Positions 16,105 to 54,707 of a stretch of 64,000 nt of DNA are shown piece by piece. Position 1 is the stretch's first letter, and each line of letters opens with the position of its first letter. The stretch is from a virus. Below the pieces are notes generated by a model that saw nothing but the letters and a program-made list of their open reading frames with translations, was not told where the DNA came from and did not search any database. The translations under genes and the position numbers were made by a program. Location: IMG/VR virus record IMGVR_UViG_3300020048_003770, positions 1 through 64,000 of that record; one strand, given 5' to 3'.

Positions 16105-18657
16105 TTGTCTCAAAGTATTTTAGATCAACTATCATTATGGAATCAGAGTTTCAGTACTAATCCTTCAGAAGAGTCTCTTGTTAAACTTAGGAGGATTTTA
16201 GGAGAAATAAATCAAGATTTTGATAAAATTTCATATGTGATTAGAAAAGGATTCCGTTCCTTTTCAGAGGATCTTATTCCAATGGCGAGAGAAGTTTTGC
16301 CATTGATTAACAATATCGATGTTATGAAAAATTTATTAGATCAAACAAAATCGTTTCTTGAATCTAATAAAGCTTCATTAATGCAAATAGATGCTAATCG
16401 AACAATTGATGAAAACGCAGGATATTTTGCTCAACAAGAAATAAAGAACCGTCTTTTATCAGATAATCTATGGAGAGTGGCAGATTATTTAATTACCTCT
16501 TTACAAAATACCAATATATCAAATAAACATATTCAGTTTATTAATAAAATTGCCTCTAATGAGATGGGTAGCGTAGTAGAAAAAATAGAAGAGGCAGATG
16601 AGGAAAGACAGGGCAAAATTCAAAAGCAAACGATGTATTCAATTTCTAATGCTAGTGAGTTGACTTTAAAAGTATTACGCGAAACGCTACAAAATGCATC
16701 TGATGCGGTTTTAGATAGTAGTCTTTTGAATTCGGGAAATTATACGCCTACAATAGAGGTTTTTACTAATACATTTGCTTTAGACGAACCTGATGAAAAA
16801 GCAATGGATCTTGTCGTTAGAGACAATGGAATAGGAATGGATGTCGATACTCTCAGGAATAAATTTTTTGTATGGTTCGCAACTGGAAAAGAAGAAAAGA
16901 AGGGTGATACTGGTGGATTTGGTATTGGTAAAAGATTGATTTTAGAAACACCAGAACAAGGTTGGTCAATAGCTACGAGAAATAATTTTTCCAATAAATC
17001 TTCTAGAAACTCTTATTTGTCGAGGAATAAACATGAAGTTGTTGATGATTTGGATTTATATTTCCCAAAGGTTGAAGCAAAAAACGGAACGACTTTAGCT
17101 TTATATTATTTGCCAGCAACTCAAAGTTATACAATAGAAACACTTTGTAAATCATATGCTACAAACTCTAGATTGAAAATAATACTTAATGGCATTCCAA
17201 TAGTTCCTGCTTTTCCAATTGATAAATTACAATTAATTGAATCTGGAGGAGATGCTATTTCTACTTTAGTTAGTAAGAACGAATATCAAGAAGGAATTGT
17301 AAAAGATTTAGTAAATAAGCAAGGACAAGATTTTTTAAATAATTTAGGAGGATTACATTTTGATCATGAAGGTAGCTCGACAGATGTAAAGTTTTATGTC
17401 GCTCCCGCTTCAGATGGTTTTTCTTCGGGTAAATCTTATTTTATGATGAATGGTAATTATCAGTTTAGTCGTAATGCGAATTTTCCAAAGGTGAATATAA
17501 TTTGTGATATTAGGAGTACAGCTAGACCAGATGATTCAGGATATCCTATGGATCAAAGTCGAGATAACGTAAGAGAACCATATAATTCTCAAATAGATAG
17601 TGTATTGGGAAAAGTCAAAGTTCTTTTAGAACAAATAACTAAAAGTCAAATTTTTCAAGATGGTCTAGAGATATATACTGTTAATGGAACTAGTTCTCCA
17701 TTAAGTACATCAACATCAAAAAAACAAGATGGTAAAGATAAATTATTACATTTCATGGGTCATTCAGATCTATTTAATAAAGAGAAATCTAGCAAACAAG
17801 AAATAATTCAAAGCGTTCAAGAAGCGATAAGAGTTTCAGACAGCCCTGAAAAAGTCAAGATATTACAGGGATTAGTTAATACCGTAAGAGAAATGGATGA
17901 CGATAAAATAATAAAACATGATGATTTGGGTACAATTTTAGACGGATTATCTACGCCATGTAATATTAATATTCAAAAGAATTTTGTTTCTAAAGAAATT
18001 GCCTATCAACGAGTAGATTTGACAAAAAATCTTATAATATTATGGAAAGAGATTATTGAGCTTATTATAGGACAATCTAATTTTATGGTTGGAAGGTGGG
18101 ATGAGAAAGAATATATTCCTGGATTGATATATTCAGATGAAGCGCTTGCCTTGTATTCTCCACCTTCGCATGGGAGTACGTTTCATTGTCTATCAATAAA
18201 TCCGATAAGTGTAGCCGCTATGTTAAATCCTTCAAGATTTGAAAAGGTTATCAGACAACAAAAACCAGAAACTTTCAAGGATCAAGTTCAATTTGAAGAA
18301 GAAAGTAATATAAAAACCGACAATACTCCAACAATTAAACTTACCAATATGTTATATCATGAAGCGGTGCATGAAGTAACTCACTTTCTATTCCCAGATG
18401 CTTCTTACGATATGGTGAATTTTCATAAATATATAACAAAAATTGAATATTTATGTGCTCCCATTTATGATGATATAAGGTTGGCTGTAAAAAGATATTT
18501 ACAAGGAATTAAGAAAGATAGTAATGAATTAATAACGCAAATGAAAAAAGACATGAATAATAAAAATGTTGAATCGTCTGTGAAAAATAAATTGACAATT
18601 AAAATGTCTAAAAAGAAATGGGAATCTATTGGTAAAATAGCAGGATGGATTTATTGA
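16105..18657 (+). CDS. GHKL (HATPase_c) ATPase with C-terminal HEXXH motif
   Basis: RETLQNASDA, DNGIGM, GGFGIG; HEAVHEVTH; C-terminal KMSKKKWESIGKIAGW. Confidence 0.8.
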   Translation: MSQSILDQLSLWNQSFSTNPSEESLVKLRRILGEINQDFDKISYVIRKGFRSFSEDLIPMAREVLPLINNIDVMKNLLDQTKSFLESNKASLMQIDANRTIDENAGYFAQQEIKNRLLSDNLWRVADYLITSLQNTNISNKHIQFINKIASNEMGSVVEKIEEADEERQGKIQKQTMYSISNASELTLKVLRETLQNASDAVLDSSLLNSGNYTPTIEVFTNTFALDEPDEKAMDLVVRDNGIGMDVDTLRNKFFVWFATGKEEKKGDTGGFGIGKRLILETPEQGWSIATRNNFSNKSSRNSYLSRNKHEVVDDLDLYFPKVEAKNGTTLALYYLPATQSYTIETLCKSYATNSRLKIILNGIPIVPAFPIDKLQLIESGGDAISTLVSKNEYQEGIVKDLVNKQGQDFLNNLGGLHFDHEGSSTDVKFYVAPASDGFSSGKSYFMMNGNYQFSRNANFPKVNIICDIRSTARPDDSGYPMDQSRDNVREPYNSQIDSVLGKVKVLLEQITKSQIFQDGLEIYTVNGTSSPLSTSTSKKQDGKDKLLHFMGHSDLFNKEKSSKQEIIQSVQEAIRVSDSPEKVKILQGLVNTVREMDDDKIIKHDDLGTILDGLSTPCNINIQKNFVSKEIAYQRVDLTKNLIILWKEIIELIIGQSNFMVGRWDEKEYIPGLIYSDEALALYSPPSHGSTFHCLSINPISVAAMLNPSRFEKVIRQQKPETFKDQVQFEEESNIKTDNTPTIKLTNMLYHEAVHEVTHFLFPDASYDMVNFHKYITKIEYLCAPIYDDIRLAVKRYLQGIKKDSNELITQMKKDMNNKNVESSVKNKLTIKMSKKKWESIGKIAGWIY

Positions 18658-18754
18658 AAATAGTTCTTGCTTTTTGAAATAAAATGGTATAATATACATA
18701 CAACGATTAAATAAAAAGAGGAATTTGAAAGAAAATAAAGAAACATAACAGGTA

Positions 18755-18844
18755 ATGAAAATGAACATAAATACAATCCATATCCCAGAACATATTGAGA
18801 TTCCCGAACCTATTGGTAAGGGTTATGGATGTGTTATGTCGTAA
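18755..18844 (+). CDS. Ile/His/Pro/Glu-rich attenuator leader peptide MKMNINTIHIPEHIEIPEPIGKGYGCVMS
   Basis: Codons 8-20 only I,H,P,E; followed by terminator and tRNA-His, -Ile, -Glu, -Pro. Confidence 0.88.
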   Translation: MKMNINTIHIPEHIEIPEPIGKGYGCVMS

Positions 18845-18866
18845 TTAGTAACATATCAATTAACAG

Positions 18867-18901
18867 AAACCCTTGCCGATAAAAGTCAGCAAGGGTTTTT
18901 T
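18867..18901 (+). terminator. Attenuator terminator 2
   Basis: AAACCCTTGC/GCAAGGGTTT plus U tract; 5' arm pairs alternatively with leader TTGGTAAGGGTT 18813-18824. Confidence 0.9.
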
Positions 18902-19080
18902 ATTGGAAAAATTAGGTTTAAAAATATGAAAAAGAAGATAAAAGATGGTAGCACTGAATGTTTTGGATTGTTAAGATTGTTAGTCTCAAGCGGTAAAGAA
19001 AGATTTGCGAAAACGACTATGAAAGAGATGCGTGAATATGGTAAAAAAATGGCGAAATGTATAGAGAGGATTTAAGTAAT

Positions 19081-19172
19081 GGTAATAGTGATGGAATTGG
19101 CTAAACATGCTAGACTGTGAATCTAGTGAGTTATAAAAACTCTTGCGGGTTCGAGCCCCGTCTATTACCCCA
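19081..19172 (+). tRNA. tRNA-His(GTG) with long variable arm
   Basis: G-1, acceptor GTAATAG/CTATTAC, C73, arm CTAGA-CTGTGAA-TCTAG, variable stem GAGT...ACTC. Confidence 0.88.
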
Positions 19173-19186
19173 ATTTTAGGAGAATT

Positions 19187-19546
19187 ATGAAAGACATGGA
19201 AAGAAAAGAAATCAGAGTTGAATTGGGAGACGTAGACTCATCTTATTTTGACGGAACTATAGACGATGTTATTGCGAGATTGAAGGCGTTAAAAGAAAAG
19301 TATTCAGATTATTCTATCTTAGACATTAGTTCTGAAGTCGGTTATGGATATTATGATAGCACTTTTGTTAAGTTTTCGTTAAGTGGAATAAGAATGGAAA
19401 CCGATGCAGAGTTTGAAAAAAGAACAGATGATTTGAAAAAGGCTAAGGAGGCGGCGAAGAAAAGGAAAATAACGATGTCTCAAAGGCAAGAGGAAAAAGA
19501 TAGGAAAGAATTCGAGAGACTGAAAGCTAAATACAAAGAGGAATAA
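19187..19546 (+). CDS. hypothetical protein
   Basis: AGGAG RBS; lies inside tRNA cluster. Confidence 0.65.
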   Translation: MKDMERKEIRVELGDVDSSYFDGTIDDVIARLKALKEKYSDYSILDISSEVGYGYYDSTFVKFSLSGIRMETDAEFEKRTDDLKKAKEAAKKRKITMSQRQEEKDRKEFERLKAKYKEE

Positions 19547-19548
19547 TT

Positions 19549-19740
19549 ATGAAAAAGTTTTGGAAAGAGTTTTGGATGGAAGATGTTAGAGAAATCACTG
19601 TTAATGCAACGATATTGATTGAAAATGCATTAAAAGAATTCAATATTGTGTTGACAGAGAAAGAAGAAGACGATATACATAATAAGATATGGGAAGTTTT
19701 AGAAAAAAGAAGTAATGGAGATTATCAAAATCATATGTGA
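19549..19740 (+). CDS. hypothetical protein
   Basis: 63-aa ORF with RBS. Confidence 0.5.
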   Translation: MKKFWKEFWMEDVREITVNATILIENALKEFNIVLTEKEEDDIHNKIWEVLEKRSNGDYQNHM

Positions 19741-19753
19741 ATGATATAAAAAC

Positions 19754-19828
19754 GGGCACTTCTTCTAAAGGTTAAGAAAATCGTCTGATACGCGATCAAT
19801 AATGGTTCGATTCCATTAGTGCCTACCA
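19754..19828 (+). tRNA. tRNA-Ile(GAT)
   Basis: Acceptor GGGCACT/AGTGCCT, arm ATCGT-CTGATAC-GCGAT, CCA. Confidence 0.88.
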
Positions 19829-19837
19829 ATTAAAAAT

Positions 19838-19915
19838 GTCGATGTAGACAAAATGGTTAAAGTCACCAGGCTTTCATCCTGGAATTTGCGGGTTCGAGTC
19901 CCGTCATCGATGCCA
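19838..19915 (+). tRNA. tRNA-Glu(TTC)
   Basis: Acceptor GTCGATG/CATCGAT, arm CCAGG-CTTTCAT-CCTGG, CCA. Confidence 0.92.
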
Positions 19916-19940
19916 GTTTTGAAAAAGTTTTAAAATTTAT

Positions 19941-20015
19941 TAGGGATGAGGTGTAATGGTTTGCACATCTCGTTTGGGTCGAGAGGGAGGAGTTCGAGTC
20001 TCACATCCTTAACCA
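19941..20015 (+). tRNA. tRNA-Pro(TGG)
   Basis: Arm TCTCG-TTTGGGT-CGAGA, acceptor AGGGATG/CATCCTT, CCA. Confidence 0.82.
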
Positions 20016-20064
20016 TTTTTTAAAATAATTCTTGACTTTCGTATTTATCTAGTATAATATCATT

Positions 20065-20391
20065 ATGAAAAAAGTAGGGGAACATTTAATATTTTCAGTT
20101 GATTTCTATAGTTCAATCAAACGTGTCAATTGTTATATGTTTGGACATTCTATGACTGGCTTATATATCAATGAATGTTCTAACGTATTAGATGCATTTA
20201 AATTAGAATTAGATAAGATTGTTGATGCTAAAAAAAGATTGAGATTTGACAGGCTTAGGTTTGGATTTAGAGAGGGTGATAAGATGTCGTATTATGATGT
20301 CTCAAAAGAAGAATATTTGAGATGTAAATGTGATATTGTTAAACCGATATTTAATATGTTATATGATGGATTTTATAGTTGTAAAGATTGA
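20065..20391 (+). CDS. hypothetical protein
   Basis: ORF directly after promoter. Confidence 0.55.
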   Translation: MKKVGEHLIFSVDFYSSIKRVNCYMFGHSMTGLYINECSNVLDAFKLELDKIVDAKKRLRFDRLRFGFREGDKMSYYDVSKEEYLRCKCDIVKPIFNMLYDGFYSCKD

Positions 20392-26107: not shown

Positions 26108-26191
26108 ATGAACACAAAACAGAACATATTTAGCTTTTTTAGCTTTAGACACCCTTCATGGACTTTGAAGGTTGGTTATGTTATGTTTTAA
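26108..26191 (+). CDS. Phe(/Ser)-rich attenuator leader peptide MNTKQNIFSFFSFRHPSWTLKVGYVMF
   Basis: FSFFSF run; followed by terminator and tRNA-Phe. Confidence 0.85.
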   Translation: MNTKQNIFSFFSFRHPSWTLKVGYVMF

Positions 26192-26213
26192 TATAATTAA
26201 AGCCAATTTAAAA

Positions 26214-26247
26214 AGAGCCCATGAATTAAGTTTCGTGGGCTTTTTTT
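26214..26247 (+). terminator. Attenuator terminator 3
   Basis: AGCCCATGAA/TTCGTGGGCT plus U tract; 5' arm pairs alternatively with TTCATGGACTTT 26155-26166. Confidence 0.88.
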
Positions 26248-26255
26248 GTTTTATT

Positions 26256-26331
26256 GGAGGTTGCGTAGGTATGGTTATTACGTCGAACTGAAAATTCGAA
26301 GAATCCGGTCCGATTCCGGAAGCCTCCACCA
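26256..26331 (+). tRNA. tRNA-Phe(GAA)
   Basis: Acceptor GGAGGTT/AGCCTCC, arm TCGAA-CTGAAAA-TTCGA, CCA. Confidence 0.88.
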
Positions 26332-47937: not shown

Positions 47938-48022
47938 GCGGGAGTAACTCACCAATCTTATGAATTGGGCAGTATAATTAGAGTAATGGTGCATGTTGGT
48001 TCAAGTCCAATCTCCCGTACCA
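47938..48022 (+). tRNA. Non-canonical tRNA-Ile(TAT), anticodon hairpin nested in D arm
   Basis: GCGGGAG/CTCCCGT-A-CCA, T arm GTTGG-TTCAAGT-CCAAT, hairpin CCAAT-CTTATGA-ATTGG inside ACTC/GAGT. Confidence 0.7.
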
Positions 48023-54058: not shown

Positions 54059-54192
54059 GGGGAAGTAGCCAAATGGAAAGGCACTATTATTCGGAAATAG
54101 CAAACAGCGATTATTACTTAAATTGTTTAATAGCAATTTCTTATCTAAACGCTTACAAACTTTTGGGGGTTCGATTCCCTCCTTCCCCACCA
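54059..54192 (+). ncRNA. tRNA-like/Y-like RNA 1 (about 70-nt module in variable arm)
   Basis: GGGGAAG/CTTCCCC-A-CCA, D arm, T arm, module AGCG...ACTT-stem-CTTAT...CGCT-TACAAAC. Confidence 0.8.
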
Positions 54193-54589: not shown

Positions 54590-54707
54590 AAGCGATCCCT
54601 TATGAAATACTTACACGCAAGTTCATTTGGTTGAACAAATCACTATTAATGATTCGGATCTGGTTCAAATCCAGAGCAAAAAATAGTATTGCTAACTTGG
54701 ATCGCTT
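54590..54707 (+). ncRNA. Y-like RNA 3 (terminal stem enclosing a tRNA body with truncated acceptor)
   Basis: AAGCGATCC/GGATCGCTT; internal D, anticodon and T arms. Confidence 0.78.

Follow-up and report, generated by a model that had tools for sequence, protein, structure and literature searches.

Layout of the cassette

The stretch of DNA analysed here (the window) consists of the first 64 kb of the IMG/VR virus record IMGVR_UViG_3300020048_003770, a linear sequence of 161,288 bp with a CheckV completeness of 87% and a G+C content of 34%. Four tRNA genes (His, Ile, Glu and Pro) and three small open reading frames (ORFs) lie together in the window, downstream of a promoter, a short leader ORF and an intrinsic terminator (Table 1). 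This cassette is considered below as a candidate leader-peptide attenuator of phage tRNA genes. Relatives of the locus were collected as 14 contigs, which were reached via ORF119 homologues at 76-92% identity.

Table 1. Features of the tRNA-His/Ile/Glu/Pro cassette, by position in the window, and leader runs of the four other tRNA cassettes
Feature	Position	Strand	Description
Promoter (sigma-70-type)	18664-18693	+	-35 region TTCTTGCTT (18664-18672); extended -10 TGgTATAAT (18685-18693)
5' untranslated leader	18700-18754	+	carries the motif AAATAaaaAGAGGAATTTG (18709-18727)
Leader ORF	18755-18844	+	29 codons, reads MKMNINTIHIPEHIEIPEPIGKGYGCVMS; conserved as five variants in relatives
Sensor run	18776-18814	+	codons 8-20, I H I P E H I E I P E P I; most of region 1
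Region 2, antiterminator 5' arm	18811-18824	+	TATTGGTAAGGGTT; pairs with 18868-18881, 14 bp
Intrinsic terminator	18867-18901	+	stem AAACCCTTGC(CGA) with (TCA)GCAAGGGTTT; hairpin 18867-18898
ORF49	18926-19075	+	first gene past the attenuator; 80-98% identity in relatives
tRNA-His(GUG)	19081-19172	+	ARAGORN and Rfam (called 19082-19172), 49.8 bits; G-1, C73, encoded CCA
ORF119	19187-19546	+	homologues 76-92% identical; predicted beta-alpha-beta-beta domain and long C-terminal helix
ORF63	19549-19740	+	small acidic protein; 76-92% identity in relatives
tRNA-Ile(GAU)	19754-19828	+	ARAGORN and Rfam, 56.8 bits; reads ATC and ATT
tRNA-Glu(UUC)	19838-19915	+	ARAGORN and Rfam, 61 bits
tRNA-Pro(UGG)	19940-20015	+	Rfam 37.3 bits (cut-off 29) in local and whole-genome searches; relaxed ARAGORN
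Next consensus promoter	20029-20056	+	14 nt past tRNA-Pro; marks the end of the unit
Cassette leader NQQNNQQNQN			before Asn, Gln and Asn tRNAs
Cassette leader FSFFSF			before Phe tRNA
Cassette leader IIGIGIAGACGGAA			before Ala, Gly and Ile(UAU)-like RNA
Cassette leader KTKTVEKATVFKKTV			before Lys(UUU), Val(UAC), Thr(UGU) and Thr(CGU)

The leader ORF is located downstream of the promoter and ahead of the first regulated gene, and begins approximately 55 nt past the predicted transcript start. Its true start may be a second ATG at 18761, which has the sequence AGGT 7 nt upstream and leaves 27 codons in an unaffected frame. An earlier note, made from the letters of the window, had pointed to 13 consecutive codons in this ORF that use only I, H, P and E, and to five Ile codons of the ATC/ATT type that fit a GAT anticodon; both claims are borne out by the sequence, the Ile codons being, in order, ATC, ATC, ATT, ATT and ATT. 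The same note had claimed that this four-amino-acid leader precedes exactly the four matching tRNAs, which also holds, with tRNA-Pro as a low-scoring member of the set. Every codon of the run (13/13) is readable by the four downstream tRNAs, and a window of 13 cognate codons was found once in the six frames of the 161,288 bp and in 0/20 shuffled genomes. Codons read by the four tRNAs make up 17.4% of the codons in the long ORFs of the phage, and the expected frequency of a 13/13 run is approximately 0.174^13 per window of that length.

Directly 3' of the sensor run, region 2 provides one arm of a putative antiterminator. The pairing proposed previously, TTGGTAAGGGTT with AACCCTTGCCGA, was recovered as part of a helix that extends to 14 bp. 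The energy of this 2:3 duplex is -19.4 kcal/mol, compared with -7.8 +/- 2.0 kcal/mol in dinucleotide shuffles of the leader (0/1000 as good), and the whole antiterminator structure reaches -28.4 kcal/mol (z -5.75). The terminator hairpin (-19.3 kcal/mol, z -7.4) begins 22 nt past the leader stop, is followed by a tract of six T at 18896-18901, and was also found by a terminator scan. Its 5' arm (region 3) is also used by the antiterminator, and the two pairings are therefore mutually exclusive. A third hairpin, formed by region 1 with 18818-18843 (1:2), has an energy of -21.6 kcal/mol, a modest excess over expectation (z -2.5). In the minimum-energy fold of the free full-length RNA, 1:2 is present together with 3:4, so that the terminator is formed. 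The layout of the cassette is the classical 1:2, 2:3 and 3:4 arrangement, and every structural hallmark of a leader-peptide attenuator that could be tested is present.

The promoter fits a strong consensus of the phage's own, AAAATAGTTCTTGa...TAtAAT, of which there are 9 + strand sites genome-wide, and its sequence is almost identical across all relatives; transcription is likely to start near 18700. The 55-nt 5' untranslated leader that follows is also near-invariant among relatives. A motif AAATA(g/a)A..GGA..TTTG is common to the 5' leaders of this cassette (C2, 18709-18727) and of two others, C1 (7743-7757) and C4 (46562-46583), and loosely to that of C6. It lies approximately 10-20 nt 3' of the -10 box, and may serve as a standby site for ribosomes, as a pause signal or as the binding site of a factor. 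The phage promoter consensus occurs at 18664 and next at 20029, with no site from the terminator to tRNA-Pro, and the terminator scan predicted no further terminator inside the unit. Internal promoters that drive the tRNAs independently had been named in the earlier note as a point to check; no strong site lies inside the unit, and weak promoters could be there.

Among the four tRNA genes, that of tRNA-Pro is the weakest call, found neither by ARAGORN at default settings nor by Rfam on the whole window; six T lie directly 3' of it. By reading, CCA is encoded in all four genes, and the G-1:C73 pair of tRNA-His is the bacterial signature. The variable region of tRNA-His is a 16-nt hairpin (GAGUU-AUAAAA-ACUC), which is unusual for tRNA-His. 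None of ORF49, ORF119 and ORF63 has a Pfam family, and PHROGs gave only one family of unknown function. The AlphaFold model of ORF119 (predicted local distance difference test, pLDDT, 81) had no significant match in the PDB, and a protein atlas returned viral hypothetical clusters only. It had been suggested that the ORFs between the tRNAs are anti-defence genes. The results neither support nor contradict such a role of ORF49, ORF119 or ORF63, which are conserved proteins without a Pfam or PHROG function and without a PDB match.

Other cassettes and related loci

Four further tRNA clusters of the genome share this layout of promoter, short ORF, terminator and tRNAs, and in each the leader matches its own tRNAs. 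When every leader was compared with every tRNA set, the diagonal of the matrix held 10, 10, 4, 9 and 8 cognate codons (best 10-codon window), with at most 4 off the diagonal. Three of the cassettes' runs are unique in the genome, and antiterminator complementarity beyond chance is present in every cassette (p 0 to 0.04). The match extends to the choice of Ile codons, which are ATY in 5/5 cases in the GAU cassette and ATA in 4/4 cases in the UAU cassette (Fisher p = 0.008); genome-wide, ATA makes up 37% of Ile codons. This split argues for sensing of the tRNA species over sensing of the amino acid. Common ancestry of the five cassettes was considered and set aside, as their alignment has a column identity of 56% in AT-rich DNA and is unconvincing. 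The leader of the Phe cassette (26108-26331) also includes two AGC (Ser) codons, and this run is conserved in one relative (L020); no tRNA-Ser(GCU) was found in the whole genome.

The tRNA genes for His, Ile(GAU), Glu and Pro are present on every relative contig that reaches far enough, and some contigs add Glu(CUC) or another Pro. In each of these contigs there is exactly one H/I/E/P-rich window, which is located upstream of tRNA-His. All leader variants share an invariant core, ATC CAT nnn CCA GAA CAT (I-H-x-P-E-H), that holds one Ile, two His, one Pro and one Glu codon. Relatives designated type B differ from the type A arrangement of the window in three respects: their terminator is another one, AAAGCCCCTAGT...ATTAGGGGCTTT, their ORF is shorter, and their region 2 has changed to GGGAGGGGT, which pairs with both region 1 and the new terminator arm. 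The difference between types A and B is covariation of the predicted switch partners. Additionally, there are one-sided changes that are compatible with the helices, namely G-U to G-C in L011 and G-U to A-U in the terminator of L015. An exact-pattern scan for the start of the leader returned nothing in viral contigs and three metagenome contigs, all with variants that had already been collected.

The tRNA bodies are mosaic among relatives (L008, L011, L014 and L015), with overall identities of 54-68% in swapped bodies, and the ORFs that flank them are 86-97% identical in the same relatives, with an unchanged anticodon set. For instance, the tRNA-His of the window shares 54-56% identity with that of every relative (72-74 nt) and looks like a replacement allele. 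Similarly, tRNA-Pro is 57-68% identical to its counterparts, and the Ile and Glu tRNAs are near-identical to those of some relatives and approximately 65% identical to those of others (Ile 67-99%, Glu 62-83%). The tRNA genes thus appear to have been replaced repeatedly with the anticodon set and the matching leader held constant, which suggests that tRNA genes are often swapped while selection preserves their identity. In type B relatives, a gene of 233-234 amino acids is located between the attenuator and tRNA-His (L012:2964-3668; L015:3155-3856); the copy in L015 shows a faint match to HNH, and the gene resembles that of a homing endonuclease that has entered the regulated unit. The unit of some relatives therefore seems to tolerate insertions.

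Proposed mechanism and alternative explanations

Taken as a whole, the cassette is probably a ribosome-mediated (leader-peptide) transcription attenuator of the trp/his/ilv type, which gates four phage tRNA genes and three small protein genes. We infer that the leader ORF is translated, that stalling within it causes read-through, and that tRNA supply is the selected signal. RNA would be started near 18700 by an early host-type promoter, and a ribosome would load on the leader ORF, where codons 8-20 would test the supply of tRNA-Ile(GAU), tRNA-His, tRNA-Pro and tRNA-Glu. If any one of these charged tRNAs were scarce, the ribosome would pause with its A site at approximately 18776-18800, covering region 1 and leaving region 2 free. 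Region 2 would then pair with region 3 (18868-18881) once the latter had been made, the terminator hairpin would be blocked, and polymerase would read through, in order, ORF49, tRNA-His, ORF119, ORF63, tRNA-Ile, tRNA-Glu and tRNA-Pro. If all four were plentiful, the ribosome would cross region 2 as far as the stop codon during the emergence of regions 3 and 4, and the terminator would form, ending transcription at the T tract (18896-18901). With no ribosome on the leader, regions 1 and 2 would pair and the terminator would also form. Because the products of the operon decode the test codons, the circuit would be one of negative feedback (a tRNA-stat) that holds the supply of the four decoders at a set point.

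The effect of ribosome position was modelled by folding the RNA that exists before the 3' arm of the terminator emerges, under a 28-nt ribosome mask. This procedure replaced equilibrium folding of the complete terminator, which was dropped as a test since classical attenuators behave alike in it. With the A site at positions up to 18797-18800, the 5' arm of the terminator is sequestered with a P of 0.91, and with the A site at 18803-18833, sequestration falls to a P of 0.3-0.4. In this model, a stall anywhere in the initial eight or nine sensor codons keeps the antiterminator and a ribosome further on breaks it, and the pattern is the same in all five natural leader variants. All four kinds are already represented among sensor codons one to eight (I H I P E H I E). 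An OR-gate (multivalent attenuation), in which a stall on any one kind of codon leads to read-through, is plausible because the invariant core places at least one codon of each kind in the stretch at which stalling leaves the antiterminator unobstructed.

Several observations weigh against this interpretation. When the complete terminator is folded at equilibrium, the terminator always wins; the switch must therefore be kinetic, like that of trp, and a kinetic choice is assumed. In the variant of the window, a ribosome parked at the stop codon leaves region 2 unmasked in the simple model, and the P returns to 0.91, such that termination would need timing or steric exclusion within the loop of 41 nt; the stop codon of type B relatives is closer, and there a parked ribosome does mask region 2. 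The AGGT before the second ATG is a weak Shine-Dalgarno signal. A generic promoter scan found matches inside the unit, only at the background level of 9 of 12 positions that is seen throughout AT-rich DNA. Among the five leader variants, that of the window is the best at 13/13, and the runs of the others are imperfect at 10-11/13. About 3/10 of the substitutions in the sensor run stay within the I/H/P/E set, which are too few to claim selection on composition. Finally, the tRNA set is the same in all relatives, and the evidence for leader-tRNA covariation of the I/H/P/E cassette therefore comes from comparing the cassettes with one another.

The same device could instead have been selected to respond to host amino-acid starvation, that is, to a shortage of His, Ile, Glu or Pro. 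The mechanism would react to any shortage of a charged cognate tRNA, and the classical leaders trpL, hisL, thrL and ilvL are known to work in this way. However, extra tRNA is no cure for an amino-acid shortage, a choice of codons at the level of the isoacceptor (ATY or ATA, p = 0.008) would be needless in an amino-acid sensor, and each cassette matches its own tRNA set, so that starvation as the selected signal is considered unlikely. A further possibility, although a doubtful one, is that the cassettes act as codon-resolved damage sensors, in which destruction of isoacceptors by defence or infection would cause stalls and thereby the production of replacement tRNAs and of ORF49, ORF119 and ORF63 as counter-measure proteins. 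In such a joint reading, anticodon nucleases of the PrrC, RloC or AriB kind would be the candidate destroyers, and the swapping of tRNA bodies would be an escape from nucleases that recognise them. As a separate observation beside this possibility, the phage encodes a T4 Rnl1-type RNA ligase (L023; genome positions 141170-142366, beyond the window; PF09511, 67.7 bits). In T4, the Rnl1 enzyme family repairs and reseals tRNA cut by anticodon nuclease.

Two other explanations would dispense with the leader peptide as a sensor. The terminator and antiterminator might be set by a protein or small RNA that acts on the conserved 5' leader, with the short ORF being incidental. The near-invariance of the 55-nt leader in relatives and the similar AAATA..GGA..TTTG motif in C1 and C4 are consistent with such a binder, but it would leave unexplained both the match between codons and tRNAs in five cassettes and the genome-wide uniqueness of the sensor run, and is judged very improbable. 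Alternatively, the leader might encode a functional micropeptide, or the match might have arisen by chance beside an ordinary leaky terminator; in favour is the conservation of the ORF in relatives. Such an account is hardly credible given that no shuffle reproduced the sensor run, that the same logic is found in five cassettes with unrelated peptides, and that what is conserved is composition and RNA pairing, whereas the C-terminal half of the peptide is wholly changed between types A and B, along with the terminator.

Related systems and other features of the genome

Multivalent leaders are known from enterobacteria, where thrL senses Thr and Ile, and the ilvGMEDA leader senses Ile, Leu and Val. 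Like these and like hisL and trpL, the phage cassette has a short ORF close to the promoter in which regulatory codons form a run, four RNA regions that pair as 1:2, 2:3 (antiterminator) and 3:4 (terminator), and a distance of approximately 150 nt from start codon to T tract; as in the multivalent leaders, several amino acids are represented in one leader and any one of them should suffice. In contrast, the targets are not enzymes of amino-acid biosynthesis or synthetases, as in classical attenuators, but four tRNAs and three small ORFs without a family, and since the targets are tRNA genes, the cassette is placed outside the classical set. It also differs in that the product decodes the sensor itself, which would give direct feedback, in that codon choice tracks anticodons (ATY or ATA), and in that the module is phage-borne and repeated per tRNA block. 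The Rfam models His_leader, Thr_leader, Leu_leader and Trp_leader gave no match in 18600-20100 at E values up to 10, and a whole-window Rfam search at the gathering score returned tRNA matches only.

Leader-peptide attenuation of a component of the translation apparatus is known from pheM-pheST of E. coli, in which a Phe-rich leader controls phenylalanyl-tRNA synthetase and responds to charged tRNA-Phe. That system is chromosomal, involves a single amino acid and controls a synthetase, whereas the phage cassette would control tRNA genes. T-box riboswitches similarly couple the supply of one tRNA species to terminator read-through through an antiterminator; however, uncharged tRNA is bound directly by a T-box, which lacks an ORF, whereas the phage sensor would be a translated codon run. 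The Rfam T-box model had no match in the window or in 18600-20100. A literature search found no description of tRNA genes, of phages or otherwise, that are controlled by leader-peptide attenuation, although earlier studies, such as any on the tRNA region of T5, may have been missed.

Phage tRNA genes are usually viewed as a fixed supplement to codon usage or as reserves against defences that cleave tRNA, and to our knowledge hardly anything has been reported on control of their expression. If the proposed attenuation is correct, the cassettes would form a self-setting supply circuit, in which decoding speed is measured codon by codon and only those decoders that are short are topped up. It would extend trp-type attenuation to a new class of targets, offer a direct read-out of the host tRNAs that a phage expects to lose, and provide synthetic biology with compact sensors that are codon-specific and programmable. 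With approximately 250 nt from promoter to terminator, the cassette is small; it also has natural variants, and is therefore directly testable.

A search of a phage collection found no close cultured phage and gave matches of tRNA size only. Using the PhoH-like gene as a query, four distant phages were found at 37-40% identity, one of which is tRNA-rich with 13 tRNAs in a single array; no codon-run leader is present in front of this array, as judged by eye only. The locus of a distant ORF119 homologue (L022) has no tRNAs. One of the relative contigs is 367,912 bp long. The conserved module starts at the promoter, and the genes upstream of it differ between the window and the relatives. In the window, the upstream gene encodes an 850-amino-acid protein with a weak GHKL-ATPase match, for which an IMG/VR search found no relatives; a homologue of translation initiation factor IF3 (PF05198 and PF00707) is present a few genes upstream of the cassette in three relatives (L008:315-839, L011:1394-1918 and L012:179-703).

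All tRNA genes of the whole genome are on the + strand and inside the 64-kb window; ARAGORN counted 18 and Rfam 22-23. Rfam matches without an ARAGORN call mark odd tRNA-like RNAs at 47938-48019, 210-286, 54059-54189 and 54617-54678. The RNA at 47938-48019 has the anticodon loop CUUAUGA (UAU, Ile/ATA), lacks a normal D arm and carries a long insert, and that at 54059-54189 has an insert of approximately 56 nt 3' of the anticodon arm. The contig apparently starts within the 3' part of a further tRNA-like RNA (1-120), with a CUCAUAA loop (CAU), a T arm and CCA; this RNA lies directly upstream of tRNA-Asp, and the first tRNA cluster, along with any leader that it had, is cut off by the contig start. 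Downstream of the cassette, the -10 box of the promoter at 20029 ends 8 nt before the ATG at 20065, and the mRNA of the 108-amino-acid ORF at 20065-20391 is therefore probably leaderless or nearly so.

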